Source: Patescibacteria group bacterium
Lineage (GTDB): Bacteria > Patescibacteriota > Minisyncoccia > Phycocordibacterales > UBA9973
Length of the DNA: 64,000 bases
Direction of reading: 5' to 3'
Assembly (NCBI GenBank): GCA_028868715.1
Contig: JAGWUB010000001.1
Coordinates: forward strand, 183,206 to 247,205
How positions within the stretch are numbered: the stretch's first letter is position 1; every line of letters begins with the position of its first letter. Positions 2 to 43,129 of this stretch are shown piece by piece. The position numbers were made by a program, and so were the translations under genes. The notes under the pieces are model-generated. The model saw nothing but the letters and a program-made list of their open reading frames with translations, did no database searches and was not told the DNA's origin.

Positions 2-571
2 TCAATTGGGCCATCAGTCGGTCGTGAGCTTACTCGAAAAGCAATTTTGGCTATTATTTTAATTTCTCTGGCGATAATCCTTTTTATTGCTTTCGCTTTT
101 AGAAAAGTTTCCAAACAAGTTTCATCTTGGAAGTATGGAGTTATTGCTATAATTACCCTTTTACATGATGTGACTATACCGATCGGGCTATTCATCGTCC
201 TCTCTCACTTTTATGGAGCCGAATTGGACACTCTGTTTGTGGTGGCCGTGCTTACTATCCTCGGTCTTTCGGTTTCAGACACGATAGTTATCTTTGATCG
301 AATTAGAGAAAATTTAAGAAACCTACCAACAAACTCCGATGTGAATTTTAGTGAAATAGTTGGTAAAAGTTTAGAGCAATCTTATGTGCGTTCTATCTGT
401 ACATCCTTGACTGTCATTATTGTGCTACTTGTCTTGTTCTTTTTCGGCCCAGCGACTACAAAATATTTTGCTTTGATGTTGACGACCGGAATGTTCTTCG
501 GCACGTACTCTTCAATCTTCCTAGCTTCACCACTTTTGGTGTGGGTAGAAGAATGGCAAAAAAAGAGCTAG
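2..571 (+). CDS. secF: Protein-export membrane protein SecF, C-terminal part (5' end off-window)
   Basis: The reading frame is open from base 2. It contains the SecD/SecF C-terminal motif 'SVSDTIVIFDRIRENLRN' and several TM helices. The upstream frame translates as 'IGPSVGRELTRKAIL', which is typical of SecF. Confidence 0.7.
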   Translation, partial: SIGPSVGRELTRKAILAIILISLAIILFIAFAFRKVSKQVSSWKYGVIAIITLLHDVTIPIGLFIVLSHFYGAELDTLFVVAVLTILGLSVSDTIVIFDRIRENLRNLPTNSDVNFSEIVGKSLEQSYVRSICTSLTVIIVLLVLFFFGPATTKYFALMLTTGMFFGTYSSIFLASPLLVWVEEWQKKS

Positions 572-604: not shown

Positions 605-1153
605 ATGAAATACATTTTTATTATTTTAGGTGTCTTGGTTTTGTGGGTAGTCTTTATTTATAATAGTTTTGTTACGTTGGTTAATCGCACTAAGGAAGCT
701 TGGGCAGATATTGAAGTGCAATTAAAAAGGAGATATGATTTGATCCCAAATTTAGTAAACACTGTAAAAGGGTATGCCGCACATGAATCTAGTGCTTTTG
801 AAAATGTAACTAAGGCTCGAGCTATGGCTTTGGGTGCTTCGGGCGTAGCTGAAAAAGGGCAGGCAGAAAATATGCTAACTGGCGCGCTCAAATCCGTATT
901 TGCAATTGCTGAAGCTTATCCAGAATTAAAAGCTAACCAAAATTTTCTAGCTTTACAACAAGAGCTCTCTGATACAGAAAATAAAATTCAATCAGCTCGC
1001 AGGTTTTATAATGGCAATGTTCGTGATTTAAACATAAAAATGGAATCTTTTCCTGCAAACATTCTCGCAAGTATTTTTCATTTCTCTAAAATGGAATTCT
1101 TTGATCTCGCAGAAGGTGATGCTGCCCAAAATCCCGTAGCAGTAAAGTTTTAA
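605..1153 (+). CDS. lemA: LemA family protein
   Basis: N-terminal TM helix followed by a 'LVNRTKEAWADIEVQLKRRYDLIPNLV' LemA-type core. Length 182 aa. Confidence 0.8.
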   Translation: MKYIFIILGVLVLWVVFIYNSFVTLVNRTKEAWADIEVQLKRRYDLIPNLVNTVKGYAAHESSAFENVTKARAMALGASGVAEKGQAENMLTGALKSVFAIAEAYPELKANQNFLALQQELSDTENKIQSARRFYNGNVRDLNIKMESFPANILASIFHFSKMEFFDLAEGDAAQNPVAVKF

Positions 1154-2040
1154 TGGCTAGTTTATATACACAACAATCGAAAAATGTTACAAAAACTTGG
1201 TTGCTAATGACCGTGTTTTTTGTGGTTATTATTTTATTTGGTTGGTTCTTTAGCTTTTATTACGGCAATCCAAACATTCTATATTTCTTTGTTATCTTTA
1301 GCATTTTAATGAATATCTTTTCCTACTGGTTTTCAGATAAAATTGTACTCAAGCTCGCCGGCGCCAAAGAGGCCAAAAGGGAAGAGTACTTTGACCTATA
1401 TACCAGCGTAGAGAATCTTTCTATTACGGCTGGCCTGCCAATGCCAAAAGTTTACGTGGTGCAAGATGAGGCGCCAAATGCCTTTGCGACTGGGAGAGAT
1501 AAAAATCACGCAGTGGTTTGCGCCACTACTGGGCTCTTAGCAATTTTAGATAAAACAGAGCTAGAAGGTGTGCTGGCACACGAACTTTCCCATATTGGCA
1601 ATCGTGATATGTTGCTTTCCACTGTCGTCGTAGTTTTAGTTGGCTTTATTACTATCCTGGCGGATGTATTCACCCGCAGTTTATTTTTTGGTGGCAACTC
1701 GAGAGATAGAGAAAATAACGGGGGAGCTATATTAATGATTGTTGGAATTATTCTTTCAATTTTAGCGCCAATCTTTGCTATGCTTATCCAGCTCGCAATT
1801 TCTAGAAAGCGTGAATTTTTGGCGGATGCTTCTGGGGCACTACTTACTAGGTATCCAGAAGGACTCGCCAACGCGCTCAAAAAAATAGGACAGTACTCAC
1901 AACCAATGGTGCGTCAATCGACAGCGATTGCTCACCTTTATATTGCTGATCCCAAAGGATCAAATCTCGGTAAAAAAATCAGTGGCCTTTTTGCGACCCA
2001 TCCACCGATAGAGGAAAGAATCAAGGCTCTAATTGGTTAA
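1153..2040 (+). CDS. htpX: Zinc metalloprotease HtpX (M48 family)
   Basis: HEXXH motif 'AHELSHI', four TM segments and a C-terminal 'ATHPPIEERIKAL' signature. Confidence 0.85.
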   Translation: MASLYTQQSKNVTKTWLLMTVFFVVIILFGWFFSFYYGNPNILYFFVIFSILMNIFSYWFSDKIVLKLAGAKEAKREEYFDLYTSVENLSITAGLPMPKVYVVQDEAPNAFATGRDKNHAVVCATTGLLAILDKTELEGVLAHELSHIGNRDMLLSTVVVVLVGFITILADVFTRSLFFGGNSRDRENNGGAILMIVGIILSILAPIFAMLIQLAISRKREFLADASGALLTRYPEGLANALKKIGQYSQPMVRQSTAIAHLYIADPKGSNLGKKISGLFATHPPIEERIKALIG

Positions 2041-2077: not shown

Positions 2078-2350
2078 ATGGATATTAAAGACGTAGAGAA
2101 GCTGGCGGAGCTGGCGAGAATTGAGCTTTCTGCTCCCGAAAAAGAGTCAATGCTTCATGACATGAAGGGCATTTTGGACTATGTGAAAGTCATAGAATCA
2201 GTTGAAGTTGAGGATATATTGCCAGATTATAAATTACACAATGTATGGCGAGAAGATAAACATATACCAAGAGAATTCTCCCATGATTCTATAATAGAAC
2301 AATTTCCAGATTCGCAGGATGGATTTTTGAAAGTAAAAAAGATCTTATGA
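2078..2350 (+). CDS. gatC: Asp/Glu-tRNA amidotransferase subunit C
   Basis: Encodes 90 aa and sits immediately upstream of gatA with overlapping stop/start. The N-terminus is GatC-like. Confidence 0.75.
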   Translation: MDIKDVEKLAELARIELSAPEKESMLHDMKGILDYVKVIESVEVEDILPDYKLHNVWREDKHIPREFSHDSIIEQFPDSQDGFLKVKKIL

Positions 2351-3762
2351 TTGATTTAAAAAAGTTAACAATTGAAAAAGCGCACCAGAGTCTTTTAAAT
2401 GGAGAATTTACTTGCCGAGAACTGACAGCAGCGTATCTGGAAGCTATCGATAAAAAAAATCCTGAACTGAATGCTTACCTAGAAATTTTTAATGATGCTC
2501 TTCTGCAGGCCGATCTTGCCGATAAAAAATTTAAAGACAAAACTGCCACCCTGCTTACCGGCATACCTTTTGCTATTAAGGACAACATTTTAATACAAGG
2601 TAATATTGCTTCGGCTGGTTCAAAAATTTTAGAAAATTATAAGGCGAGCTATGATGCGACGGTTATCAAAGATTTAAAAAAAGCTGGAGTAGTATTTTTA
2701 GGGCGCACAAATATGGATGAATTCGCCATGGGTTCTTCTACTCAAACTTCTGCCTATGGAGTGACTCGTAACCCCATAGATACTTCTAGAGTCCCTGGAG
2801 GGTCCTCTGGTGGTTCTGCAGCGGCGCTAGCCGGAGATATTGCTTTGGCTGCTCTAGGGACTGAGACCTGTGGTTCGGTTCGTGAACCTTCAGCCTTTTG
2901 TGGATTAGTCGGATTAAAGCCTACCTATGGAGCAGTTTCTAGGCATGGAATAATTGCTATGGGGAATTCTCTTGATCAGGTTTCTCCATTTGGAAAAGAC
3001 GTGCGGGATACCGAAATAATTTTTGATCTCTTGTCTCGACACGATGAAGAAGATAGTACTTCAGTTCCGGAAGATTTGCGTAAGGTAACAAATAAAACAA
3101 ATTCTAAAAAGATCGGTGTGCCTTGGCATCTCTTCTCCGAGGGAGTGGATAAAGAAGTAGCAGAGAATTTTAAAGAGTCCATAGAAAAACTCAAAAAAGC
3201 TGGGTATGAAATAGTGGATATAGAAATTCCATATTCAAAATATTCCTTGGCAGCATACTATATAATAATGCCAGCAGAAGTTTCTACAAACCTAGCTCGC
3301 TTTGATGGAATTCGCTATGGCTTTAGTTCTCCAGGGAAGGATTTAATGGAAGTTTATAAAAGTAGTCGAGCCAAAGGTTTTGGCAAGGAGGCTCGCCGAC
3401 GTATCTTGCTCGGTACCTATGTACTTTCTCATGGATATTATGACGCCTATTACAACAAGGCTATAAAAGTAAGAGAAAAAATAAAAGCTGAAATTATGAC
3501 TGCCTTCCAAAATGTTGATTATATTCTTACCCCGACGGTGCCAATGACAGCATTTAAGCTGGGTGAAAAAATGGATAACCCGGTGTCTATGTATCTGTGC
3601 GATATATTTTCGGCTCCAGCCAATTTGTCTGGAGTGCCCTCTATTGCTCTGCCTTCAGGCCGGTCAACCGAAGGCCTACCTTTCTCGATCCAGTTTATGG
3701 CACCACATTTTCGTGAGGATCTGCTATTTGAGATTGGTAAAAAATTTGAGGAAATTCAATAA
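2347..3762 (+). CDS. gatA: Glutamyl-tRNA(Gln) amidotransferase subunit A
   Basis: Amidase signature 'GGSSGGSAAA' with the GatA catalytic core. Length 471 aa. Confidence 0.9.
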   Translation: MIDLKKLTIEKAHQSLLNGEFTCRELTAAYLEAIDKKNPELNAYLEIFNDALLQADLADKKFKDKTATLLTGIPFAIKDNILIQGNIASAGSKILENYKASYDATVIKDLKKAGVVFLGRTNMDEFAMGSSTQTSAYGVTRNPIDTSRVPGGSSGGSAAALAGDIALAALGTETCGSVREPSAFCGLVGLKPTYGAVSRHGIIAMGNSLDQVSPFGKDVRDTEIIFDLLSRHDEEDSTSVPEDLRKVTNKTNSKKIGVPWHLFSEGVDKEVAENFKESIEKLKKAGYEIVDIEIPYSKYSLAAYYIIMPAEVSTNLARFDGIRYGFSSPGKDLMEVYKSSRAKGFGKEARRRILLGTYVLSHGYYDAYYNKAIKVREKIKAEIMTAFQNVDYILTPTVPMTAFKLGEKMDNPVSMYLCDIFSAPANLSGVPSIALPSGRSTEGLPFSIQFMAPHFREDLLFEIGKKFEEIQ

Positions 3763-3799: not shown

Positions 3800-4447
3800 A
3801 TGAATCCACCACAAACGTTTGATCAAAATAATATACTCCAAGGTACATTTTTGGGTTCAAAATATTTCAATCCATTTTATTTATTTGATCAAGGATATTT
3901 ATTTTTTCAGAATCTCTATTATATTATCACTAGCAATCAAGTTAGAAATCTTTATTACTTTATTATTTTTTTGCTGGCAACATTTTTTCTAACATTGATT
4001 ATCTATTGCATAATTAGATTATTTGAAATCAGGAAAAAAGAGCAAGCGCACTTGGAGCATGAGATTGCGGAATATGCTCACCACAAAGCTGAACGTGAGA
4101 AAAAAATGCAGGCAGGGGAAGGGGGAGTGTCTGACAATCCTAGATGGATGGAGACTTTAAATTATCTTTTCTCAAATAATCCAAGTGACTGGAAGCTCGC
4201 CATTATGGAAGCTGATTCAATGCTTGATAGTTTATTGGACCAACTAGGGTTCAGAGGTGAGAATCTCGGCGAAAAATTAAAGTCGGCTACGCAAGATAAG
4301 TTTCGAAATTTAAGTGCCGCATGGGAAGTACACACGATAAGAAACAGAATAGCCCACGAAGGCCTATCTTATGAAATATCGCAACATGAAGCCAAGAGAG
4401 TGATTGCTCTGTATGAGAGAATCTTTCGAGATTATGGTTTTATTTAG
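3800..4447 (+). CDS. Hypothetical membrane-anchored protein with C-terminal HEPN-like Rx4H motif
   Basis: N-terminal TM segment. The C-terminal helical domain ends with 'TIRNRIAHEG', matching the R-x4-H HEPN pattern. Confidence 0.4.
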   Translation: MNPPQTFDQNNILQGTFLGSKYFNPFYLFDQGYLFFQNLYYIITSNQVRNLYYFIIFLLATFFLTLIIYCIIRLFEIRKKEQAHLEHEIAEYAHHKAEREKKMQAGEGGVSDNPRWMETLNYLFSNNPSDWKLAIMEADSMLDSLLDQLGFRGENLGEKLKSATQDKFRNLSAAWEVHTIRNRIAHEGLSYEISQHEAKRVIALYERIFRDYGFI

Positions 4448-4472
4448 TTACTTTGTTGCCAAGGGCAGACCA

Positions 4473-4506
4473 TAGAGCCGAATCGAACGGCCGTCTTAAG
4501 GTTATG
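4473..4506 (-). repeat. Tandem partial copy of the tRNA-Met 3' half (anticodon loop to T-arm)
   Basis: 31 nt of 4476..4506 is identical to the corresponding part of the adjacent tRNA. It lies 12 nt from the tRNA 3' end. Confidence 0.6.
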
Positions 4507-4514
4507 AATTATTG

Positions 4515-4585
4515 TTGCGGGAGGCCGAATCGAACGGCCGTCTTAAGGTTATGAGCCTTACGAGATACCTCTTCTCCATCCCGCT
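4515..4585 (-). tRNA. tRNA-Met (anticodon CAU); CCA not encoded
   Basis: Hand fold of the minus strand gives acceptor AGCGGGA/TCCCGCA with a 1:72 mismatch and D-stem GAGA/TCTC. The anticodon stem is TAAGG/CCTTA with loop CTCATAA. The T-arm is GGCCG-TTCGATT-CGGCC. Confidence 0.6.
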
Positions 4586-4645
4586 ACGTTAGGCGTATAT
4601 TACCTCAATTTTGATTAAAAATCAAGTTTAATATATAATTGCGTC

Positions 4646-4879
4646 ATGAGTATATTTATCTCAATTTTGATTATCGTTGCTTCGATTTGTTTGATCATAG
4701 TGTCTATCCTGTTAATCACAGTCCTACTGTATATTTTAGCTCTTATTTTTACCTTGAAAGGTATTTTAGAAAAAATGGAAAAAAATATTGGTTTTGCGAC
4801 TAAAACAGCCTTAAAAACTTTTTCTGAAATAAAAAATAGCCGAGCAGTCAGATTTCTTCTAAATAAGAAAAAGAAGTGA
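4646..4879 (+). CDS. Hypothetical small membrane protein
   Basis: 77-aa ORF that is hydrophobic at the N-terminus and lysine-rich at the C-terminus. It lies between two tRNA genes. Confidence 0.3.
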   Translation: MSIFISILIIVASICLIIVSILLITVLLYILALIFTLKGILEKMEKNIGFATKTALKTFSEIKNSRAVRFLLNKKKK

Positions 4880-4902: not shown

Positions 4903-4991
4903 TGGCGGAGAGAGCGAGATTCGAACTCGCGGTCCTTTTAAGGGACGACAGTTTAGTAAACTGTTGGTTTAAGCCACTCACCCATCTCTCC
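4903..4991 (-). tRNA. Type II (Ser-like) tRNA with unusual anticodon loop TTACTAA (ACU); CCA encoded
   Basis: Minus strand reads GGAGAGA...GCGAG-TTCGAAT-CTCGC-TCTCTCC-G-CCA, with a long variable arm and G73 discriminator. The anticodon stem is ACAGT/ACTGT. Confidence 0.6.
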
Positions 4992-5464: not shown

Positions 5465-5553
5465 GGAGCCGTGTCAGAGTGGTCTAACGTACCTCTTTGC
5501 TAAAGAGGCAGGGGCTTCAAAACCCCTCGACGGTTCGAATCCGTCCGGCTCCG
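5465..5553 (+). tRNA. tRNA-Ser (anticodon GCU)
   Basis: Acceptor GGAGCCG/CGGCTCC. Anticodon stem CCTCT/AGAGG with loop TTGCTAA. Long variable arm. T-arm GACGG-TTCGAAT-CCGTC and G73 discriminator. Confidence 0.75.
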
Positions 5554-5747
5554 CACCAGTTTTAGTCTTGAAAAAGCTCCATTTTTTTGTTATAATGGCG
5601 TTATGAACGCTAATAATAAAGATAATCAAGACGACGAGAATAGGACCAACAATCAAAACAATACTAGCGCCAATAACAAAAAAAACCCTAGTACTGGAAA
5701 TTACGAAGAAGAAGAGGAGGAGAAGGCTAAAACCGAAGAATAATTTT

Positions 5748-7904: not shown

Positions 7905-9155
7905 ATGCTTTTTAGAGATGCTTTTAAAACCTCAATCAGAAGTTTAACACATGGAAAAATGCGTTCTATTTTAACCATGCTAGGTGTTGTTATCGGTATA
8001 GCTTCAGTAATTATCCTTATGTCAATTGGACAATCAGCCCAAAATTTAATTTTGGGTCAAGTGCAAAGTATTGGCTCCAATCTCATTATCATCATGCCTG
8101 GGGCACCAAGTAATGGAAAATTCTCTGCTCCAGCTTCTGCCCAAGGAGTGGTTATTACTAGTTTACAAGAAAGAGATGTCGAAGCGTTAGGGCGAGAATC
8201 TTCCGTAGATGCCGCCGCTGCGCTGGTTAGTGGGCAAGCAGAAGTAGTTTATGGGAATAATAATAAAACAGTAAGCTACCAAGGGGTGAGTGCTAATATG
8301 TTTGCCGTGCGAAATTTAACGGTAGGCAAAGGTTTTATATTTTCAAAAGGGGATGTAGATTCTGTAAATCACGTGGCAGTTATTGGGCCTGATCTTGCCA
8401 CAACTCTTTTTGGTCCTGCCCTTAACCCAATTGATAAAATAATTAGAATGAAAAATGTATCTTTTAGAGTGATCGGAGTTCTTAGTAAGGGGGGTATTGG
8501 TGCCTTTGGTGTTGATCAAGGGAACATAGTGATCATTCCAATTACTGTTGCCCAAAAACAATTACTTGGATTTTCTTATTTAAATACTATTTTAGTTCAA
8601 GCAAATGCAAGTTATGATATTGATTTTGTTAAATCACGTATAACCTTTGCCTTACGCCAGAATCATGGGATAACTGATCCAAACAAAGATGATTTTAATA
8701 TACGAACTCAAGCTGATGTTCTGTCTATCTTAGGTAGTATTACTTCTATTCTTACGTTATTTTTGGCATCCATAGCCTCTATATCTCTTGTCGTTGGCGG
8801 TATTGGTATTATGAATATAATGCTCGTCTCTGTGACTGAGAGAACTAGGGAGATAGGACTCCGTAAGGCTGTCGGCGCGACAAATGGCGATATTATAAAA
8901 CAATTTCTTATTGAGTCTGTTTTATTAACTTTTATAGGTGGTTTTGTAGGTATCACTGTCGGCGCAGGAATTGTTGGTCTTGTTTACTTTGTTCTTACAA
9001 CTTTCTTTCCTTCTTTGGGTTGGGTTTTCGCTTTTCCTATTTCATCTGTGATTTTGGGGTTGATAGTTTCCGGTATAGCCGGAATCGCTTTTGGAATCTA
9101 TCCAGCCTATCAAGCTGGTAAGAAAAATCCGATTGATGCCCTACGCTATGAATAA
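7905..9155 (+). CDS. ABC transporter permease (MacB/FtsX family)
   Basis: N-terminal TM, a large periplasmic domain and a C-terminal FtsX-like four-TM bundle. Confidence 0.85.
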   Translation: MLFRDAFKTSIRSLTHGKMRSILTMLGVVIGIASVIILMSIGQSAQNLILGQVQSIGSNLIIIMPGAPSNGKFSAPASAQGVVITSLQERDVEALGRESSVDAAAALVSGQAEVVYGNNNKTVSYQGVSANMFAVRNLTVGKGFIFSKGDVDSVNHVAVIGPDLATTLFGPALNPIDKIIRMKNVSFRVIGVLSKGGIGAFGVDQGNIVIIPITVAQKQLLGFSYLNTILVQANASYDIDFVKSRITFALRQNHGITDPNKDDFNIRTQADVLSILGSITSILTLFLASIASISLVVGGIGIMNIMLVSVTERTREIGLRKAVGATNGDIIKQFLIESVLLTFIGGFVGITVGAGIVGLVYFVLTTFFPSLGWVFAFPISSVILGLIVSGIAGIAFGIYPAYQAGKKNPIDALRYE

Positions 9156-31998: not shown

Positions 31999-32505
31999 AT
32001 GGCAACAAATAAACAAAAAATTGCAGCAAAAAAGAATATAAAAAAGGCGCAAGCTAAATGGAAAAGTATGACTCACAGGCAACATGCCTTAGCTCAACCA
32101 CAAGGCAGGATGCGCCAGAAGCCGGGTACGACTGGCAAGGGGAAGTTTTACCGCGTAGAAGTTCGCCCTAAAAGTGATTTCACTTCATTTCGTATTCAAG
32201 ACGTGGGAAAGAAGGGTGGACTAGAAAGACTTGCTGGGAGGCGTAGCAGTGGTAGCTGGGGAACCGTAGCGTGGTTAGTCAGCAAAAAAGATGCTCACGT
32301 TACCAAGGACAAGAAACTAGTAATTGACGACATAAAAGCCAAGAGTTTCTTAAAGCAAATTCGAGGCAAGATTAAGCACGTGAAAGGAGACATTTTTAAA
32401 GCGCATCCTCTTAAAAATATAGCTGAAAGCGCTAAACCAACTCCAAAGCAACGCAAAGCACAAAAAGCTAATATTAAAAAAGCACAGAAAGCTAGATGGA
32501 AATAA
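31999..32505 (+). CDS. Hypothetical basic protein with KKAQ(K)A...W termini
   Basis: 168 aa and lysine-rich, with a repeated 'IKKAQ.KW(K)' at both ends. Its GC is intermediate between host and element. Confidence 0.4.
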   Translation: MATNKQKIAAKKNIKKAQAKWKSMTHRQHALAQPQGRMRQKPGTTGKGKFYRVEVRPKSDFTSFRIQDVGKKGGLERLAGRRSSGSWGTVAWLVSKKDAHVTKDKKLVIDDIKAKSFLKQIRGKIKHVKGDIFKAHPLKNIAESAKPTPKQRKAQKANIKKAQKARWK

Positions 32506-32951
32506 ATTCTTTTTTAAAAAATGCGGAGTCTGGTGGACGATGTTAGAACCTATTGGCAGACCACTGCGGACAGGTTTTTCATCCCCAGACTGTCATTAGA
32601 GTCAGCACAGATAGTATAGTATTTTCTGGTCTATTCAGTACAGTCCTGTACTGGTACATACCTACCAACAGTAGCACCCGTGCAACTTTTGACATATACG
32701 TGTCATATCATTGTCAGGGTGTCTTTTTGGGTCAAAGACAGTGTGCTTACTATATCCTGTTATAGCTCGGCATAACCGAATCACCGATTTTACTACGAGA
32801 GTTATACAGAAGCATACAAAAGGGCGTACTCCCGTCTCTCTTGCCCTCAATTTTGTGAAAACTGGGAATGGGTGGTGGGTGTTTTCCTTTTGACTTTTGC
32901 GCGGGCGGCGGGGACACCCTCTCCAAGTTGAGCCTTTTTACCCGAAAACTT

Positions 32952-35546
32952 TTATGCCTGGCGAACTGCTATGTCTTTTATCTGCTGAATGTCGGTTTTG
33001 AGTTTGGCGATGTCTGGTGCTGCGTGCTGAACCATCTCATCGGATTGATTATGTGCCTCTATGTACCTGCTGAACTCTTCGTGTAGTTGTTTCGCTTTAT
33101 CCAGCTTTTCACGACTCAAGCTCGCGCGGGTAGCGTTGTGCATCTGAATCTGGTCAGACCAGCGCGTAATAACTCTGCCGAAGATTCTTTCTTCAACCGC
33201 TTTCTCGACCGCTCTACGTAACATCCCGTAGGTGCCTCTGATGCCGTCCGCTTGAGCTTCGCCAGTGAGAGTTTCAAGCTCAAGAACTTTTGCCTCAACT
33301 TTTTGAATGTAAGCATCGAACTTTACCGAACCAGGATAGTAGTTTTGTGTTACCACACCGACTCTGGCGGCTTCCGAATGAAGGTCGTGAAAGGCGGCTT
33401 TGGCTGGGTCAATGTTTCCGTCATTGTTTTCAACCTGGTCGTGAAGATAACTCGCAAACATCAAGTCGTGAGTGAAAACCACAATCTGCCGCGCTTCGGA
33501 TTCTTGTACGATTCTTTTTGCGATTCTCTCTTTTCTGTCGTGGTCAAAACTTGTAGCGGGGTCATCGAAAATCACTGGTGCGTGCTCGGTTTGCATTGAA
33601 AGCTCGGCAAAGAAATCCGAGAGGGCGACGGCTTTCTGTTCTCCCTCGCTCAAGAATTGGTCTATGCCGTCCAACCCTTCCATATTCTTTGCCCGCATCT
33701 GCGAGCCGTACTCTCCGCGAAACTCAAGATTGACTCCTGGCGCGTCGAGGTCTGCCGCTTCTTTTTGAAACTGTGCTTTGAACGAATCGGATACCAATTC
33801 ACGCCAGGCTTTCTTGCCCAGGTCGGTTGTCGGCTTCGTGTTGAGTTTGTTTGCCTGCAATGGAGATGCCTTTTCTATCCACCGCTCGATTGCGATGTAC
33901 TTCTCGACTTGTGGTCGGTGTTTTGAAAACTTTTGAATGTCTTGCAGCTCCGCTATTTCCTTATCGAGTGCCTGGGACTTTTTGAAAAGGTTGCGTTGCG
34001 ACTCTTCAAGGGTTTTTATGTCCGCTTCAACTTTAGCTCTCGCTTTGCGGATGCTGGAGATAATGCCAGAGGTTTTTACTGGTTGGAACTTCTGCGGCTT
34101 CTTGTTTTTCAAAGAAGATGCCACTTTTTGAGCCAAGCTGTCAGCCTCGGTCAATGCGGCGAATGCGGTAGCGACCGTTCGCTTCTGCAAAAACTTTTCA
34201 AAATCTTCCTGTCCGTATGGAAAGTCGTCTGCAAAGGAGGAGTTCTCCAAATCGTTCAGTGCCCCGTTGAGTTTCTCCTCAACATCTTCAATGTCGGATG
34301 TTTCTTCTTCTTGGAAAAGTTCTCGGTAAAGCTGAATGAGTTTCTGTGCTCCTTTCGAGAGTTTCTGCTGGCAGTATATGCAGCGGTCATCGTCTCCTGG
34401 GTATTCGTCGTGCTCGGCGATGCGGATGTAATCCTCTCCAGCATCAATAAACTTTTCCCACTCGTCCGATTCCTTTTCCGCTATGTCGTAATCCTCAAGA
34501 GTCTTGCCCTTCTTTACTGCTTGCTTCTTTTTGAGCTGGGCAAACTTTTTTACCAAGCCGAAATACACTCTGATGTTTTGAGCGGACAAGTCGGACTGTA
34601 CTTGCGCAAGGGCATCTTCCAACGCCTTGAGTTTTTGGTTTCGCGTTCGCAGAATCTCCGACTGTTGGTCGAGATTTTGTAGTCCTTTCCTTTCTTTTGT
34701 TTTATCCGTAAGAGCTTTTTGCGCTTTTGCATCCCAGGCTGGAAGTTTATTCAAATCATCCGATTTTGTACTTGCCGTTATTCCTGCAACAAACTTTCCG
34801 ATTGAAGTTTCCTCATTGAAAATGTCGTCAATCAAAGGCTTGTCGTTCGCGGTATTCCTGATGTCTTCCGCCAGACGTTCTTGCAGCCCCTGCATTGACG
34901 TTGAGAGAGCCTGGAACAGCTCGAAGCCGTAGGGCTGGTAGGAGAAGCCGAGACTTTTATTCAAATAGATTGGGATGCACTTTCCGTCGAAAACCGCCAT
35001 CTGGTCAAAGGGAGCAAGTCTGCTTTCGCCACTCCATTGGCAGACAGTATCGGTGGCACCATTCGCATATTGTATTTTCGCTTTGCAGCGATTTTGAGAT
35101 TTTGTGCTGTGGACATTTTGCCATACGTCTTCCTGCGTTCTTGAGCCAGCAACTCTTTTGAGTATTCGTACAAAACCAGACTTGCCGCTTCCGTTCTTGC
35201 CATACACGACCGTCAGCTTCGGATGAAATGGAATCGTCGCCCCACGTTCAAGCGCATTCACACCGCTTTCGTGCTGCAAACTTTTGAGCGCAAATCCGTT
35301 CGTAGCAGCGGTTCTTTGAGCGGGTACGATTGGCGCTGCTGGCTCTGCTTCTCCAGCTTTCTTTTCCTGCAACTTGTGAACGATTAGAAACTGCTTGTAG
35401 ATTTCGTCGAGGAACGCTTCATCTGGAATCGCACGCGACAACAAAACCCTTCCGATAAGGGACTTGAGCCATTCTTCGCCGCTCTGATTTGCCAGCTCTT
35501 GCAGGTAATCATCGGCTTTCAGTTTTTTGCTTGTTGTCATAGTCAT
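32952..35546 (-). CDS. Large ABC-type ATPase with coiled-coil CxxC zinc hook and extra C-terminal domain (RloC/PrrC-like anticodon-nuclease candidate)
   Basis: Walker A 'GKNGSGKS' near residue 117, a long coiled coil and 'DDDRCIYCQQ' at mid-protein. Signature 'LSEGEQ', Walker B 'VIFDDP' and H-loop 'FTHD'. A C-terminal domain of about 185 aa carries an R-x3-E...H pattern. Confidence 0.5.
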   Translation of the reverse strand: MTMTTSKKLKADDYLQELANQSGEEWLKSLIGRVLLSRAIPDEAFLDEIYKQFLIVHKLQEKKAGEAEPAAPIVPAQRTAATNGFALKSLQHESGVNALERGATIPFHPKLTVVYGKNGSGKSGFVRILKRVAGSRTQEDVWQNVHSTKSQNRCKAKIQYANGATDTVCQWSGESRLAPFDQMAVFDGKCIPIYLNKSLGFSYQPYGFELFQALSTSMQGLQERLAEDIRNTANDKPLIDDIFNEETSIGKFVAGITASTKSDDLNKLPAWDAKAQKALTDKTKERKGLQNLDQQSEILRTRNQKLKALEDALAQVQSDLSAQNIRVYFGLVKKFAQLKKKQAVKKGKTLEDYDIAEKESDEWEKFIDAGEDYIRIAEHDEYPGDDDRCIYCQQKLSKGAQKLIQLYRELFQEEETSDIEDVEEKLNGALNDLENSSFADDFPYGQEDFEKFLQKRTVATAFAALTEADSLAQKVASSLKNKKPQKFQPVKTSGIISSIRKARAKVEADIKTLEESQRNLFKKSQALDKEIAELQDIQKFSKHRPQVEKYIAIERWIEKASPLQANKLNTKPTTDLGKKAWRELVSDSFKAQFQKEAADLDAPGVNLEFRGEYGSQMRAKNMEGLDGIDQFLSEGEQKAVALSDFFAELSMQTEHAPVIFDDPATSFDHDRKERIAKRIVQESEARQIVVFTHDLMFASYLHDQVENNDGNIDPAKAAFHDLHSEAARVGVVTQNYYPGSVKFDAYIQKVEAKVLELETLTGEAQADGIRGTYGMLRRAVEKAVEERIFGRVITRWSDQIQMHNATRASLSREKLDKAKQLHEEFSRYIEAHNQSDEMVQHAAPDIAKLKTDIQQIKDIAVRQA

Positions 35547-35569
35547 TTTGTATCTTCATAGTCGGGATT

Positions 35570-35974
35570 CTACTTTATCAATCGGCTCACTTTGCTCGTA
35601 ACTTTTTCGGGGTGTTTTTTTATGAACGACCCCCAAAACCTTACCACTTTGTACCCTTGTTTCTTGAGTATCCTGTTTTGCTTTTTGTCCCGCTCAATGT
35701 TCGCAGCTATTTTCACTTTCCAAAACGGCGGCACTTTGCCGACCCAATGTTGAAAATCCTTCCCGTGCCAGAAGTCTCCATCCGCGAAAATGGCAATCTT
35801 ACTTTTTGGAAAAACAATGTCTGGTTTTCCAGGAAGATTCTTTACGTTTTTTCTGTATCGTTCCGTACCCCAAAACACTTTGATGCACTTCGTCAGATGC
35901 GCCTCAATGTCTGTCTTCGAGCTTTTGACTCGGGACATTATGTCGCTTCTTTTTGTTTTGGTGAAAATGTCCAT
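35570..35974 (-). CDS. vsr: Very short patch repair endonuclease
   Basis: 'RSDIMSRVKS', 'LPGKPDIVFP' and 'IFADGDFWHG' Vsr motifs. Confidence 0.85.
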   Translation of the reverse strand: MDIFTKTKRSDIMSRVKSSKTDIEAHLTKCIKVFWGTERYRKNVKNLPGKPDIVFPKSKIAIFADGDFWHGKDFQHWVGKVPPFWKVKIAANIERDKKQNRILKKQGYKVVRFWGSFIKKHPEKVTSKVSRLIK

Positions 35975-35980
35975 CGCGCA

Positions 35981-37060
35981 TCATTTTATGAACCTTATTT
36001 GAAGGGTTAGCTTGATAAAAAGAGAATCATTTTCCTGGTAGACTTTTCCGAATCCGTAACGAGTGGTGCTCGGCGTATCAAAGCGTGTGTTTTTGAACAG
36101 ATATGCCCTAAAAGCGTCCGCGTTGTATACGTGATAACAAACCATCTCCCCATCTTCGCGGACTATGATGTAACCGCCGTGCGCTCGCAAAAGACCGTCC
36201 CAGGCGGTATCGGGAACCATACCGAGAGCCACGTTGTGAAGAAGACTTTTTACTTTGAACTCATAGTCGGAGCGGTCGAGGTCGAAACTCAAAATGTTGG
36301 TTTCACCATTTCCGAGGTTTGCTATCAGTTCTGGCAAACCAGAACCTTTACCGAGATAAAAAGCCAGCAATAACTGCGCGACAATTTCTGGGAGAACCGT
36401 ATCAACGCGCCGAAGATTTCTGGTGAAAGTATCCGAGCTGATGCCATAGTATGAAAAACTGCCACCAGCGGCGACAATCGCGGAAAGTCTGTCTCTTACT
36501 TTCGAGCGGGTATCAATGGCGTTTATTTTCGCAATTTGTTCTTCGCTCAAACCTTCAATCTTGTAGACAAAGTTTGTAGCTGCGGAAGGATTCAGCAACG
36601 TAGACGCGGCACCCAGCATTGATTTGATACTGAAACCGACTTCTGGTTCGGTGCCAGTAACGTGGTCGTGAATCTTCAACGTGATGTCTTCTTTTCTGGC
36701 ATTGCCAGCATTCAATCGGGTAGCGTGGAAACGAGTCATCAAAGAATCCGCTACTGGAATCGAAAAAGTTGACTCGGCACCGTCTCTTATCGCTTGGAAA
36801 ACCTCTACAACTTTTGTTTTCAAATCGGAGCTATCAACGAGTGCTACTTCCGTACCAGCCTGGATGATTTTCACCTTGTTGTCTTCGACGAACTCATAAT
36901 CCATTCTGCCAGCCGCTTCCTCTCTGATGATTTTCAGCACAGGATAGAATATGTCCTGAATCTTCTGGAGATTTTCGTCAGCACCATTGAGCTGCTTTTC
37001 CGCAAGCAGTTTGATGAAAGTGTAGAACTCGCTCCATTCTCCTTTGTTTCCTTTTATCAT
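35981..37060 (-). CDS. Type II restriction endonuclease (partner of adjacent C5-MTase; HpaII-like family suspected)
   Basis: 359 aa. Its start overlaps the MTase stop by 4 bp (ATGA). It sits between a C5-MTase and vsr, and the family assignment comes from recall only. Confidence 0.45.
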   Translation of the reverse strand: MIKGNKGEWSEFYTFIKLLAEKQLNGADENLQKIQDIFYPVLKIIREEAAGRMDYEFVEDNKVKIIQAGTEVALVDSSDLKTKVVEVFQAIRDGAESTFSIPVADSLMTRFHATRLNAGNARKEDITLKIHDHVTGTEPEVGFSIKSMLGAASTLLNPSAATNFVYKIEGLSEEQIAKINAIDTRSKVRDRLSAIVAAGGSFSYYGISSDTFTRNLRRVDTVLPEIVAQLLLAFYLGKGSGLPELIANLGNGETNILSFDLDRSDYEFKVKSLLHNVALGMVPDTAWDGLLRAHGGYIIVREDGEMVCYHVYNADAFRAYLFKNTRFDTPSTTRYGFGKVYQENDSLFIKLTLQIRFIK

Positions 37061-37941
37061 AGTAGTTGAAGTGATTTTACTATCTGTGCGGCAGTCGCCT
37101 GAATGGCGGGAACCGCGACCGCGTTTCCAAGCTGTTTCATTGCCTGGACATCCGATACGGGAAAAACAAAACTGGCTGGGAAGCCCATCATCTTCCTGCC
37201 TTCTTTCGGAGAAAGTCTACGAACCTTTCCGTCCACCATATAGGCGTCCCAATTCCTTCTGTCTTTTATGTCCGAGCCTCTTCCTCCGACCCGCAGAGTG
37301 TATCCGATTGTTTTTTCAGCTTTCCCGCCGAATATGTCGGACATTGTTTTCGTCAACTTCACGGGCTTGGGGAACTCGAAGGGTGTGTTTTTATTCTTGA
37401 ATCCGACCATAAAAAGCCGTGCACGGTGCTGTGGCACACCGTGGTCGGAAGCTCGAACTATCTGGTAGTGAAATGAGTAATCCAAGTCTTCCTCAATGAT
37501 TCTTTTTATTGTTGCGAATGTTTTACCGTCATCGTGTTTGAAGAGATGACTCACGTTTTCCAGGAAAAAGGCATCGGGTTTTTTCTCTTTGATAATCCTT
37601 ACGATGTCGTGAAATAACGTACCCCTTGAATCGGCAAACCCTTTTTTGAATCCCGCATTGCTGAACGGTTGGCAAGGAAAACCAGCGGTTAGGATATGAA
37701 AATCGGGAATCTTCTTTGCATCCACTTTGGTTATGTCTCCTGCAAAGTTTCCGTTTTTGAAAATCTCTGGTTCCACTTTTTTGAAATTGGCTTCGTAAGT
37801 TTTCCGTGCGCGGTCATCCCATTCGCTCACGAAAACACACTGCCCGCCGAGGTTATGAAAAGCCAGATGAAAACCGCCTATTCCAGCGAATAGGTCTATG
37901 AAGGTGAACTTTGGTTTTGATTGTCTTTTTGTCATAGTCAT
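37057..37941 (-). CDS. dcm: DNA (cytosine-5)-methyltransferase
   Basis: Motif I 'FAGIGG', motif IV 'PCQPFS', 'ENV', and a late 'LGNAV' motif. Confidence 0.85.
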   Translation of the reverse strand: MTMTKRQSKPKFTFIDLFAGIGGFHLAFHNLGGQCVFVSEWDDRARKTYEANFKKVEPEIFKNGNFAGDITKVDAKKIPDFHILTAGFPCQPFSNAGFKKGFADSRGTLFHDIVRIIKEKKPDAFFLENVSHLFKHDDGKTFATIKRIIEEDLDYSFHYQIVRASDHGVPQHRARLFMVGFKNKNTPFEFPKPVKLTKTMSDIFGGKAEKTIGYTLRVGGRGSDIKDRRNWDAYMVDGKVRRLSPKEGRKMMGFPASFVFPVSDVQAMKQLGNAVAVPAIQATAAQIVKSLQLL

Positions 37942-37954
37942 TGTTTATGGAGAG

Positions 37955-38131
37955 TTACTTTTTCGGTTCGCTCCTACCGTGTTTCAAGAAGTCTTTTACG
38001 TCCTGGTCGGTAAAGCGCCACTTACCGCGCTTTGAACCCTTGAGCCAACCCTTTTGTAGATACCGAAACAGCGTTCTTTCTTTCACGCCGAGTATCTTCT
38101 CCAAGTCTTGCAGTGTGTAGGTTTTTATCAT
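37955..38131 (-). CDS. Small helix-turn-helix DNA-binding protein (excisionase/AlpA-type HTH_17; possible controller of the R-M operon)
   Basis: 58 aa reading 'MIKTYTLQDLEKILGVKERTLFRYLQKGWLKGSKRGKWRFTDQDVKDFLKHG'. Not in the ORF track because it is shorter than 60 aa. Confidence 0.55.
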   Translation of the reverse strand: MIKTYTLQDLEKILGVKERTLFRYLQKGWLKGSKRGKWRFTDQDVKDFLKHGRSEPKK

Positions 38132-38208
38132 AAAAGTTTTGACTTGATGATGTCTTTATTCTACACTGGAGGTAAGAATAAGGCAACTTTTGACAGGGTG
38201 CCTTATCA

Positions 38209-38871
38209 ATGACAATGATTATGAACGACAAACTCACAAAAGTTATCGGCTTGATTCAGGAGGGACTAAAATACAGCGATGCCGAAGACAATCGGGTATC
38301 GGAAGACGGCGTGCAAGATTACGGAATTGATAAGGTTGAGCTGTACGAGGATACGCTTCGCTCGGCAGGACTATCGAGAGAAGACATTTACGGAATCTTG
38401 AAGAATCTTCGGAATGATGGAGTAATAAAACTCCAGCAGGTATTTTACGCTCCAGAACGAACACCCTCAAACTACGAGAATAGACCGAGATACAAAGTTC
38501 CAGCCGACGATGAGTACAAATTGCCAGTCTATGTTTTGCATATCAACCGAGAGAAATTGCAGCCCTCAAACTCAAACGAACCCTTCTCCTTTGACGCAGA
38601 GACTGGGCTGCTGCACTTTCAAGGTAAAACGTGCGAGTTGCCCCTCAAGCAATTTGAATACTACGTAATCAAGGCTTTGACTGCTCAACCAATCGGTAAG
38701 CACGTAGAGGAAGCAGACATCGAAGAGATAATTGATGCGCTCGGAGCGGACGGCAGCAAGTCGAGGGTCTATGACACGCGCCGCCGCATCAACAAACGAG
38801 TGAAAGAAGAATTGGGTATTGAAAACTTGGTTGGTTATTCAAACTCAACTTATTGGATAAACCAACCTTGA
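38209..38871 (+). CDS. Hypothetical protein with C-terminal OmpR/PhoB-type winged-helix
   Basis: C-terminal '...SRVYDTRRRINKRVKEELGIENLVGYSNSTYWIN'. Confidence 0.4.
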   Translation: MTMIMNDKLTKVIGLIQEGLKYSDAEDNRVSEDGVQDYGIDKVELYEDTLRSAGLSREDIYGILKNLRNDGVIKLQQVFYAPERTPSNYENRPRYKVPADDEYKLPVYVLHINREKLQPSNSNEPFSFDAETGLLHFQGKTCELPLKQFEYYVIKALTAQPIGKHVEEADIEEIIDALGADGSKSRVYDTRRRINKRVKEELGIENLVGYSNSTYWINQP

Positions 38872-38961
38872 GTAAAATCCGACTCGGAATGAGTCGGTAA
38901 GTTTCCATAGTCATAGGAATAGGCTTGAAGAAAGCCTGTTTTTATTTTGGCTTGAAAAGTT

Positions 38962-39216
38962 ATGACGATGACTGGAAACAATACAAGTGATTCGTTCCGC
39001 ACCGCAGACCTCTCACTGGTCGCGGCACTTTGCGTTTCTGGTTTTGTCGTAGAAGAGATGGAGAGAGTAAGTCCTACTCGGTCGGTCTTCATCTTCCAAA
39101 GCTCCGCCGAGCTGCACGAAACAGAGAAACGTTACTGGCGGGGAGATTTACGAATTGAGCCGCAAGCCTTCTTCAACCAACTCAAAATCTTGAAGGCGCG
39201 CATCTACGAGCGATGA
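38962..39216 (+). CDS. Small hypothetical protein (DUF5659-like pattern)
   Basis: 84 aa with a 'FRTADLSLVAALCVSGF...IFQSSAEL' pattern, recognised from recall only. Confidence 0.35.
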   Translation: MTMTGNNTSDSFRTADLSLVAALCVSGFVVEEMERVSPTRSVFIFQSSAELHETEKRYWRGDLRIEPQAFFNQLKILKARIYER

Positions 39217-39369
39217 TTTCCGAACAAGCAATAAAGGATTTCAAAGCCATCTGGAAAAAACAGTTTGGCGAAGAGATTTCGGATGAAAAAGCAACCGAAG
39301 AGGCTTTGAACTTTTTGCGCTTTCTCGACATCATCTATCGCCCTGTTCGTAAACAATGGGTCGAAGACT

Positions 39370-40311
39370 ATGACAATGGAACACATCGGCGACAACCTAA
39401 AAAAGTATAGTTTTGAGCAACCTGCGTCCCGACCGCAGGAAAGTTCAAAAAAGGAACCTGCAAAGGAGCCTTTTATTCCTTTTCCGCGTTTTCTGGTGGA
39501 GCATTACCGTAACCACCTCATAACCTATCGTGAGCTTGAGCTACATAACTGGATGCGACTTCACGCCAATATGTTCGGCATTGCGAGCGTAAATGTGCAC
39601 GCGATGCTTGATGATTTGCCGCACTTCAAAAGCGTTGACCGCATCACAAAAGTATTGAGGTCGCTGCGCCGCAAGAAGTACATACACTACCAGGAGCGAA
39701 AGGGACGCCGAGGTACATTCGAGGTGCGATTTGACCATTGGCTGCTAAAAGGCGGCAAAGTTCAGACTCTCGATAGATACTTTGAGCAGGAGAAAGTCCG
39801 AGGTGAAAGCGGAACCAAAGCCACAGGTGCAGCGGAAGCAACACCGTCTTTTAGTGGTCAAAGTCCGAGGTTGAACGAGCAGGAACACCCCGTAAATACG
39901 GGGGCAAACTCTTTTATGAACAACCGCTTTGTCCGAGGTGATAAGAACGATAATAAGATTGAAACAAAAGAAATAAAGACATCTTCGTCGTCGAGCACTT
40001 TTAGGGGGGAAGCAAAAGGAAGCAGAGTGGCAACTCGCGACTTTGTGCCACAATCCGACGCCGAAGAACGATGCAAACGAATCGCGATTGAAGTCGGCGA
40101 CGAGTACATCAATTTTATTTTGAGCAAGTTGAAACACAAGGACGGCGGCATTGAAGTTATTGAGAATGCGTTTCAAGCCTACCAAGATGTTTTGCGAATC
40201 GCCGAAGAGAAGGGCGACATTGAACCGATAAAAAACCTTCCCGCCTTTTTCAATAGGTGCGTCAAAGACGCCATAGAGGAAAACCAGATGAAAAAGTCTG
40301 GCAGATGGTAA
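39370..40311 (+). CDS. Hypothetical protein (possible winged-helix replication/DNA-binding protein)
   Basis: 313 aa with an N-terminal wH-like segment 'ITYRELELHNWMRLHANMFGIASV'. Confidence 0.35.
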   Translation: MTMEHIGDNLKKYSFEQPASRPQESSKKEPAKEPFIPFPRFLVEHYRNHLITYRELELHNWMRLHANMFGIASVNVHAMLDDLPHFKSVDRITKVLRSLRRKKYIHYQERKGRRGTFEVRFDHWLLKGGKVQTLDRYFEQEKVRGESGTKATGAAEATPSFSGQSPRLNEQEHPVNTGANSFMNNRFVRGDKNDNKIETKEIKTSSSSSTFRGEAKGSRVATRDFVPQSDAEERCKRIAIEVGDEYINFILSKLKHKDGGIEVIENAFQAYQDVLRIAEEKGDIEPIKNLPAFFNRCVKDAIEENQMKKSGRW

Positions 40312-40315
40312 CGAT

Positions 40316-41167
40316 ATGGAACTAAAGGCAATCAATCCGACTATACACACTTACCCCCTTGTCAGGTTATTACAGGGTGCTATAATGACTATGCGTCCTA
40401 CAAGTTTGAATATGTGCACAGGGTATTTGCCTTTTTATGGCTCCAATTGCGGGCTGAAAGGGGCGACTACCTCTCCACAATTGGTTGCCTTGTGCAATTC
40501 AATCTTGTGGGACGCAGAGCTCTGGTCGTCCCTTTTTGATTTTAGTGGGACGGTCAGAGAAAGAATGACTATGTCCCACTTATTGAATAAAGTTATCAAG
40601 TTTTTCAAAGAGAGCTATTCTCCGAAGTTGAGAAGAGTTCTCTTTGGGATTCTTATTTTAGGATTGGCAGGAATCTGGTTTGTTGGCAGCTATCAGCACT
40701 CAACGATTGACTCACGCATTGCAGAACGTAAAACGCAGATTGGGCAAGAACGTGAACGAAAAGAAATCGGAGCGCAACAATACTACGACGATTGCCTGCA
40801 AAGAGAATCAACAAAACCGAAAGGACAATTTTATTTCTCTCCCTGCTTCCATCCAACACTTCTGCCGCTTGAGACGGAATACCAGTACGACAAACAACTT
40901 CGCGGACTTGGAGATTTGAAAAACAATCTTGAGTCGGGATTCTTCTACTTCGTTTTTCTCCTATGTCTTGCCGCACTCACCATCGCCATACCAGTAGTGC
41001 GATTACTCTGGCTTCTGGGTAAACTTTCGTGGAGTAAAAGCAAAATAGCAACAGCCTCATTGCGTTCGGAGTCAGCGCAGATGTCGAGTTTCCAGAAATA
41101 CTCACTCGTCTTGTCGGCACTCATTTTGATTGCGCTCATAACGATGATTTTGATTTTGCTTACATAA
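40316..41167 (+). CDS. Hypothetical membrane protein (true start possibly internal Met ~40568)
   Basis: TM helices near residues 105-125 and 225-245 and at the C-terminus. Two internal MTM starts. Confidence 0.3.
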   Translation: MELKAINPTIHTYPLVRLLQGAIMTMRPTSLNMCTGYLPFYGSNCGLKGATTSPQLVALCNSILWDAELWSSLFDFSGTVRERMTMSHLLNKVIKFFKESYSPKLRRVLFGILILGLAGIWFVGSYQHSTIDSRIAERKTQIGQERERKEIGAQQYYDDCLQRESTKPKGQFYFSPCFHPTLLPLETEYQYDKQLRGLGDLKNNLESGFFYFVFLLCLAALTIAIPVVRLLWLLGKLSWSKSKIATASLRSESAQMSSFQKYSLVLSALILIALITMILILLT

Positions 41168-41278
41168 AACTATGAAAAAACAAACTGCAAAAACCAAATC
41201 AAAGAAAAAGCCGCGCAAGGATAAGAGTGCGGAGATTCAAGTCGTCTTCTTTGCGAAGCATCCCAAGAATCCAAAACT

Positions 41279-43039: not shown

Positions 43040-43058
43040 ACCGCTATCCGACGCCTCC
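42971..43058 (-). tRNA. tRNA-Ser (anticodon GGA), CCA encoded
   Basis: Acceptor GGAGGCG/CGCCTCC. Anticodon arm CCACC-TTGGAAA-GGTGG. Variable arm ATACC-GAAA-GGTAT. T-arm GAGAG-TTCGAAT-CTCTC. Confidence 0.8.
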
Positions 43059-43129
43059 AGTAAACTCCTGCTTATAATCTACATCATTTTAAGTAAAAAG
43101 AAAGTTTTATGCTATGATGATGTATCGTT

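Follow-up and report, generated by a model that had tools for sequence, protein, structure and literature searches.

A truncated copy of the initiator tRNA gene in a Patescibacteria genome, probably the remnant of a dead tandem paralogue

This analysis concerns the initiator tRNA locus in a 64,000-nucleotide stretch of contig JAGWUB010000001.1 from a Patescibacteria group bacterium (the window, by which we mean that whole stretch). An intact gene for an initiator-type tRNA-Met(CAU) is located at positions 4515..4585 on the minus strand and is followed by an extra 3' half of the same gene. Comparison with related loci suggests, at a probability of roughly 0.55, that this extra half is the 5'-truncated remnant of a dead tandem initiator-tRNA paralogue that has been partly homogenized with the live gene.

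The partial copy, its tail and the D element of relatives

The 31-nucleotide sequence TCATAACCTTAAGACGGCCGTTCGATTCGGC is present exactly twice in the window, where its expectation in shuffled sequence is 0. Repeat copy 1 (4524..4554, minus strand) is the exact 31-mer match that runs from U33 to C64 (standard numbering) of the functional tRNA. Repeat copy 2 (4477..4507, minus strand) is identical to the live gene at 31/31 positions, and would represent the anticodon loop from U33, the variable region and the T arm of the dead paralogue. The two copies are 16 nt apart with a period of 47. A 7-nt spacer, CAATAAT (4508..4514, minus strand), forms the start of the tRNA 3' trailer and resembles CAAGTAAAT of a related locus (L132, see below) upon alignment. 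Thus far the preliminary description of this locus, which reported an exact 31-nt copy from U33 through the T arm immediately 3' of the tRNA, is confirmed as the U33-C64 segment. It placed this copy 12 nt downstream of the gene and let it extend down to 4473, and both values require correction: copy 2 begins 7 nt past the discriminator A73 and ends at 4477.

Copy 2 is followed by a 24-nt tail (4453..4476, minus strand) composed of TCTATGG and then TCTGCC-CTT-GGCAACAA. The tail appears to be a decayed T-stem, acceptor 3' strand and trailer because its TCTGCC-NNN-GGCAACAA part matches the live tRNA end, TCGGCC-TCC-CGCAACAA, at 12/14 specified bases. Compared with the live gene, it is extended by an insert of about 12 nt, and the trailer sequence CAACAA is present behind the degenerate acceptor strand. 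The acceptor 3' strand CTCCCGCAA follows copy 1, whereas TCTATGGTC follows copy 2, and only 1/9 positions match between them. Because TCTATGGTC rather than an acceptor strand stands at this point, the boundary is sharp and copy 2 is unable to complete a cloverleaf. The T-arm hairpin (G49.U65) is retained in copy 2 with no acceptor 3' strand directly after it, and therefore the tRNA 5' half and copy 2 cannot together form a tRNA.

Two simple explanations for this arrangement were rejected. The first, a single intron-bearing tRNA assembled from both segments, had been named beforehand as an outcome that would overturn the initial interpretation. The covariance model covers only the contiguous 71-nt gene, and TCTATGG after copy 2 cannot pair with AGCGGGA. 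The second is simple slippage, since a 47-nt tandem duplication would have repeated the 16-nt spacer, and the spacer is not repeated.

The functional gene itself is called by ARAGORN and by Rfam model RF00005 (56.3 bits, full length), which agree on a complete tRNA(CAU) at 4515..4585 on the minus strand, as previously proposed, and call nothing else at the locus. The tRNA is 71 nt to its discriminator, with no encoded CCA, and an identical or near-identical gene is found in 47 metagenome contigs. The A1.A72 mismatch and the shortage of G-C pairs in the anticodon stem, both of which had been pointed out with the choice between initiator and elongator left open, are plainly visible in the sequence. 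In relatives, position 1 is A or C (U in one contig, L102), while A72 is constant. The anticodon stem, A29:U41/G30:C40/G31:C39, has two G-C pairs instead of three and keeps the R:Y pattern. The D stem reads G10 A11 G12 A13 / U22 C23 U24 C25, and thus includes an A11:U24 pair; this pair and the anticodon stem are kept in all relatives. Natural initiator tRNAs with an au/GC/GC anticodon stem have been documented in alpha-proteobacteria and in some mycoplasmas (PMC5389676). In L006, L007 and L115, an adjoining second CAU tRNA begins GTCGGCG...CGCCGAC and has a paired G1-C72. Thus, the 1:72 mismatch with its constant A72, the A11:U24 pair, the natural stem variant and the paired second CAU tRNA of relatives indicate that the window tRNA is almost certainly the initiator. 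As a separate observation, L140 carries an initiator-type tRNA (2141..2212, minus strand) with an aberrant T loop, CGCAATT in place of TTCGATT.

The proposed origin of the extra half relies mostly on its closest relatives, which were gathered through the 215-amino-acid (aa) protein encoded next to the tRNA gene; these and other fetched loci are given L numbers. The closest is L132, a Joint Genome Institute (JGI) contig with 79% identity in the 215-aa protein. In tRNA orientation, L132 carries a promoter, an upstream partial copy (the U element), the intact tRNA, 20 nt, a downstream partial copy (the D element) and the stop codon of the neighboring gene. The Logan contig L133 independently reproduces this arrangement. 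The D element of L132 begins with ATAGCGGGATGTAGAAGAGGTATCTC, which corresponds to tRNA positions -2..25 with one mismatch and is followed by 16 unrelated nt. Its middle is formed by CTCATAACCT, an inserted GC hairpin and ACGGCCGTTCGATTCGGC (the T arm), and it ends with the tail TCTAATTGTCTGCCACTGGCAACAAG. Window copy 2 and its tail align with the 3' part of this element. The window tail, TCTATGGTCTGCCCTTGGCAACAAAG, is clearly the same sequence as the L132 tail, and likewise the tail TCTATAATCTGCCTCTGGCAACAAGG in L134/L135. Judging from these alignments, a dead tRNA paralogue is preserved at full length in L132, and the window carries its 3' two-thirds. The L132 element is itself a mosaic, with TCTCC and GACT.ATAGCG as in the U element and a D loop as in the tRNA.

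Several characteristics of pseudogenes are evident. Homology extends beyond a single block and includes flanking sequence. None of copy 2, the U elements or the D elements yields an RF00005 match at E<=10 or an ARAGORN tRNA; only the contiguous intact gene scores. The D element is also patchy in its distribution, being present in the window, L132/133 and L134/135, and absent from L143/144 and L136 of the same clade (a rough assignment from a neighbor-joining tree of the one 215-aa protein) as well as from L140, L141 and L005. Because of this patchiness, a decaying pseudogene or relic fits well. Of the 94 CAU tRNA genes among the fetched loci, those of the window and L132/133 are the only ones followed on the same strand by a 3' copy.

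Divergence is unevenly spread along the element. In the window, 0/31 differences occur in the tRNA-homologous block versus 4/17 plus an indel in the tail (Fisher p ~0.012), and among the three D copies 0/28 tRNA-homologous columns vary versus ~6/25 tail columns (p ~0.008), where all counts were made by eye and the p values were calculated by hand. Gene conversion from the invariant live gene would explain this mosaic pattern.

These observations are consistent with the following series of events. In the ancestor of a small Nomurabacteria subclade, a unit of about 95-105 nt that included promoter-proximal bases, the tRNA and its trailer would have been duplicated in tandem. (The GatA protein of the window is 78% identical to that of a Candidatus Nomurabacteria metagenome-assembled genome.) The downstream copy, D, might then have lost function through replacement of its anticodon-stem 5' strand, small insertions and mutation of its acceptor strand. 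In the window genome, D would have been shortened from its 5' side as far as the anticodon loop by a deletion of about 65-70 nt, which reached from just inside the trailer (CAAGTAAAT in L132 and CAATAAT here) to C32/U33, where D homology resumes. The part that matches the live gene might stay identical by gene conversion from the adjacent gene or by recent re-copying. The remnant is probably transcribed within the 3' trailer of the precursor tRNA and removed during 3' processing, and presumably has no function of its own.

Co-transcription and trimming of the fragment are probable because a conserved promoter-like site lies upstream of the tRNA. This putative promoter, TTGATT-17-TAATAT (4597..4625, minus strand), was read from the sequence. 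It scores 8/12, which is under the scan threshold, and the consensus scan did not report it. The same motif is located upstream of the tRNA or U element in L132, L135, L140 and L143. The -35 region (4611..4625, minus strand) also forms a perfect palindrome, TTGATT-TTT-AATCAA, that is conserved in the same four loci and could be an operator.

Several points somewhat dampen our enthusiasm for a truncated paralogue. The left edge of the window repeat, C32|U33, is 1 nt from the site (U33|C34) where relatives carry a group I intron, which is a near-coincidence under the deletion model, though D and U homology resumes at C32 too. The edge also falls in the anticodon loop, where tyrosine integrases often cross over. 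The D element is known from three lineages only, and so the polarity of change is uncertain: the element might have been truncated in the window or extended in L132. In addition, selection, instead of gene conversion, could have kept the 31 nt identical and the T-arm block unchanged in all D copies. Finally, L135 (1300..1390, minus strand) and the end of L134 carry a hybrid that consists of the promoter, the tRNA 5' half, the 31-mer and the D tail; it lacks an acceptor strand and is not called as a tRNA. This hybrid is either a real deletion product in which the gene was destroyed, or a k=31 collapse of a tandem like that in the window.

The latter prospect raises the question of whether the window tandem itself was created during assembly, as a false tandem joined from two strain variants or from a k-mer repeat that had been collapsed or expanded. 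The repeat is 31 nt long, which is also a common k-mer size, and L135 illustrates how such a locus might collapse. Logan contigs (SRR32006837-39, assembled at k=31) are 100% identical to the window and end 30 nt into either copy. Breaks at these places are expected from a shared 31-mer, which also occurs in many co-occurring species, and so these contigs do not by themselves prove the tandem. The junctions AATAAT|TCATAACC and CGGC|TCTATGG rest on the genome assembly. However, any assembler needs the AATAAT|TCATAACC junction in its reads to output it, the CGGC|TCTATGG junction recurs in L001, and the orthologous order of tRNA and then D was assembled independently from JGI and Logan data. We therefore regard an artefact as highly improbable.

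Mobile DNA and the integration-scar interpretation

A duplicated tRNA 3' half is easily taken for the attL/attR footprint of an integrase, and this was the initial interpretation of the locus. Under such a model, an element would have integrated within the anticodon loop and brought a 3' half of its own. The native half that it pushed aside, with copy 2, the tail and the native trailer, would have remained downstream, and the element would then have been deleted almost fully. The order of parts agrees with this model, in that a complete tRNA is followed by a partial 3' copy and a native-looking trailer, CAACAAAG, like the CAACAAG of relatives. The left boundary lies in the anticodon loop, which the Williams 2002 survey of tRNA integration sites reportedly treats as a classical crossover site. 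In addition, the same genome encodes a large serine recombinase in an island next to a different tRNA.

Against this, the block of identity ends at C64, short of the tRNA 3' end, and a degenerate acceptor-like stretch appears only after the insert of about 12 nt. No integrase or recombinase gene is present in the region from 1 to 12.5 kb of the window, where the open reading frames (ORFs) code for SecF, LemA, HtpX, GatCA, MscL, HlyD, MacB and similar proteins, such that the flanks are all housekeeping. The two copies are separated by just 16 nt, with no foreign DNA between them. The model also requires a deletion that ended exactly at the edge of the repeat, and it predicts neither the 5' tRNA part of the L132 D element nor the presence of U elements upstream.

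Comparison with relatives for empty versus occupied sites, which had been suggested as a check, did not turn up any occupied site. Among the related loci, about 31 have this convergent layout; none of them has an island between the tRNA and the 215-aa gene, and their spacer measures 7-196 nt, with the exception of a weak 36%-identity hit at 2.2 kb. Seven further relatives carry nothing larger than a D element or an intron. A metagenome scan with the 31-mer returned 47/47 contigs with a single intact tRNA and no second copy. No carrier of a matching phage attachment site (attP) was found: viral contigs gave 0 matches for the 31-mer, its 24-nt core or the copy/tail junction, and a BLAST search of 4440..4600 against phages and plasmids gave generic tRNA-Met matches only, although this test is weak given that the viral, phage and plasmid collections hold few elements from the candidate phyla radiation (CPR).

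The integrase-scar interpretation is not supported, since every defining feature that could be tested was absent, and we judge such a scar distinctly unlikely. A related suggestion, that the site is a hot spot with repeated integration and excision or a collapsed integration site, survives in part. The locus is indeed a hot spot for rearrangement, but its involvement in integrase-mediated events is unsupported.

Elsewhere in the window, the stretch of approximately 32000..43060 rises in GC content from 38% to 46% and codes for an AAA_13 ATPase, a Vsr endonuclease and an HpaII restriction enzyme with its C5 methylase. A 586-aa large serine recombinase (41279..43039, plus strand) is also encoded there, and the 3' end of its gene overlaps tRNA-Ser(GGA) (42971..43058, minus strand). 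This stretch is likely to be a genuine integrated defense island beside a tRNA.

U elements, group I introns and breaks in the anticodon loop

Partial copies are also found on the other side of the initiator tRNA. U elements occur in L132 (~3885..3951, minus strand), L006 (3244..3318), L007 (10244..10300), L113/L128 (176..250 in L113), L121 (3056..3130) and L115 (three tandem units, 995..1295). Each is composed of tRNA positions 1-25, with the 5' acceptor strand and the D arm, followed by a conserved linker and a hairpin, ATAACC-loop-GGTTATGAGCC, whose 3' strand provides an 11-nt perfect antisense match to the tRNA anticodon arm. The elements share ATAGCGCGAATAACC-loop-GGTTATGAGCCTAG, a snap-back palindrome made from anticodon loop sequence. 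Their 5' part is identical to the tRNA of the same genome even where tRNAs differ between genomes (L006; C1 in L115), and two of the copies bear a GC hairpin inserted in the D loop. There is no covariation within the U elements, only invariant pairs.

The spacing of these copies resembles that of a small tandem array. In L132, the U element, the tRNA and the D element start 106 and 93 nt apart, and the U element and the tRNA share promoter-proximal bases. L115 carries three tandem 101-nt units, each with promoter-like bases plus tRNA positions 1-24, and therefore unequal crossing-over operates at this locus. The array patterns as a whole are consistent with a small tandem family whose members undergo both unequal crossing-over and gene conversion.

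Short GC-rich hairpins, of which CCCGCCATAGGCGGG and CCTCCCCTGCTAAGGGGAGG are examples, interrupt the tRNA-derived copies or their surroundings at various points and resemble miniature insertion elements. They are located in the tRNA 3' flanks of L096/L104/L110/L116/L117, L107, L114, L122, L123 and L125, in the D element of L132, and in the U elements of L007 and L115.

The anticodon loop of this tRNA is further interrupted by introns in some relatives. In L138/L139, whose relatedness to the window is 71%, U33 and C34 are separated by a 263-nt group I intron (2268..2530, minus strand, in L138; RF00028 52.6 bits, E = 1.5e-12). Related introns are present at U33|C34 in L142 (2754..2852), L015 (~8190..8470) and L012 (~4500..4720), and each ends ...GGTAA(A)G|CATAACC. 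The introns measure about 260-290 nt, contain no ORF and are distributed among four related Paceibacteria lineages. Group I introns in CPR tRNAs have been mentioned earlier (PMC8172020). With group I introns at U33|C34 in four relatives, the anticodon loop of the initiator tRNA is a breakage-prone site in this lineage. The introns also matter for annotation, as standard tRNA finders miss intron-bearing initiator genes: ARAGORN does not call the one in L138.

A second type of element is found immediately 3' of the initiator tRNA, where an 82-aa GIY-YIG ORF is present in L006 (3509..3754), L007 (10470..10703) and L018 (12536..12766). An inverted repeat, CACTTCG.CTCGC...GCGAG.CGAAGTG, stands ahead of this ORF. 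At the same spot, L099, L112, L121 and L130 have related pieces, about 100 nt long, that lack an ORF.

A homing endonuclease, either encoded by an intron elsewhere in the population or a free-standing enzyme such as GIY-YIG, might therefore have cut an intron-less tRNA gene in its anticodon loop, whereupon imprecise or fold-back repair left partial copies behind. This is the main rival of a truncated paralogue or else its complement, because such repair could be the origin of the D and U elements and is compatible with pseudogene status. The introns of L138/139, L142, L015 and L012 mark exactly the U33|C34 site, and tRNA homology resumes at C32 (the L132 D element and some U elements), at A35-A37 (most U elements) and at U33 (the window). 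The palindrome CTCATAACC-loop-GGTTATGAGCC of the U elements is as expected of fold-back repair or template switching in the anticodon arm, and the GIY-YIG ORFs adjoin the tRNA in three of the loci. However, the CPR introns at this site do not code for an endonuclease, and a search of the window for GIY-YIG genes found none. The base ahead of copy 2 is T, in agreement with the intron-less gene, rather than the terminal G of the intron. The cleavage itself is putative. The idea that the fragment or the U and D elements are intron relics was rejected because they show no similarity to the L138 intron, and this lack of common sequence also counts against repair at a homing site. On balance, we consider repair of this kind unlikely, and continue to favor truncation of a dead tandem paralogue.

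Neighboring genes, possible functions and known systems

The convergent neighbor of the tRNA codes for the 215-aa membrane protein (3800..4447, plus strand) that served as the anchor for comparing empty and occupied sites. Its gene adjoins the initiator tRNA in 44/47 metagenome loci, in one of two orientations, either convergent or upstream in the same direction. The protein has 1011 homologues and a weak HEPN_Swt1 match (E=0.0085), and it carries an invariant C-terminal WEVH..RN.IAH motif (R-x4-H, HEPN-like). A profile search of the PDB found no relative. Nearby, there is a tRNA-Ser(ACU) (4903..4991, minus strand; Rfam 56.1 bits) with A34, the loop TTACTAA and an encoded CCA. It lies 500 nt from an unrelated tRNA-Ser(GCU) (5465..5554, plus strand). 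An A34 is unusual in bacterial Ser tRNAs, and no homologue of tRNA-Ser(ACU) was found in the fetched loci outside the window genome.

No positive evidence for a function of the fragment was seen in the window. Nevertheless, a T-arm-like hairpin and anticodon-loop sequence in a trailer might act in cis as a tRNA mimic, for example as a processing or stability signal, as a decoy for anticodon-loop nucleases, or as a barrier between the convergent tRNA and 215-aa genes. In favor of this proposal, the three D copies differ in the tail but not in the tRNA-homologous blocks, and the stem of the tail hairpin TGCC-NNN-GGCA is retained in three lineages although the loops differ. The U elements are likewise conserved across diverged genomes, and their 5' part co-varies with the tRNA of the same genome. 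Conversely, the fold of the trailer is no better than that of shuffled sequence (z = -0.7, -0.9), no terminator was found in the trailer, and there is no evidence of covariation. The element is also absent from most relatives, including members of the clade, and the window copy lacks the 5' part that L132 has. A functional cis element thus seems quite improbable.

It is equally speculative that the window copy and the D and U elements belong to a conserved family of cis-encoded tRNA mimics in Paceibacteria, which would serve as decoys or as leaders and trailers that sense initiator tRNA supply and autoregulate it. If this were true, decoys might shield the single essential initiator tRNA gene or its transcript from endonucleases or RNases directed at the anticodon loop. 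The attackers could be intron homing enzymes or the adjoining HEPN-like protein.

By itself, the window fragment is a small and fairly ordinary pseudogene remnant. It serves as a reminder that a duplicated tRNA 3' half need not be an integration scar. The single initiator tRNA gene of Nomurabacteria/Paceibacteria has been altered repeatedly: dead copies stand beside it in tandem, snap-back rearrangements and GIY-YIG cassettes occur, small hairpins are inserted, and U33|C34 is the site of a group I intron. This lineage-wide picture, with its U and D elements and its intron, is the part worth following.

Among known systems, the attL/attR repeats of tyrosine integrases are similar in that a direct repeat of the tRNA 3' portion, starting from the anticodon loop, lies downstream of a complete gene. 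They differ because the repeat described here is short of the tRNA 3' end and is accompanied by no integrase, island, occupied site or attP carrier. Split or permuted tRNAs of archaea and red algae also present a tRNA half as a separate piece with its boundary in the anticodon loop, whereas here a complete gene is present and the extra half has neither an acceptor strand nor a partner 5' half.

In Synechocystis PCC 6803, a group I intron occupies the anticodon loop of tRNA-fMet and is associated with I-Ssp6803I (PMC1995217). The introns of the relatives interrupt the same tRNA species in the same loop, at U33|C34, and by eye they are similar to Azoarcus-type tRNA introns. In contrast to that system, the gene in the window is intron-less, the introns of its relatives lack an endonuclease, and the fragment shares no intron sequence. 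Phage T4 SegB is a free-standing GIY-YIG homing endonuclease in tRNA clusters, and the small GIY-YIG ORFs immediately 3' of the tRNA in L006, L007 and L018 have a comparable location and a putative activity of this kind, whereas the window has no such ORF.

Finally, tRNA pseudogenes and partial tandem duplicates that evolve in concert with the parent gene likewise involve a same-strand copy beside its parent, block-wise identity, failure to match tRNA models, a patchy distribution and, in the relatives, tandem units of about 100 nt. There are two differences. Here, the parent encodes the only initiator tRNA, an essential one, of a reduced CPR genome. In addition, the dead copies share a rearranged architecture, including the replaced anticodon-stem 5' strand and the palindrome of the U elements, that recurs across diverged lineages.

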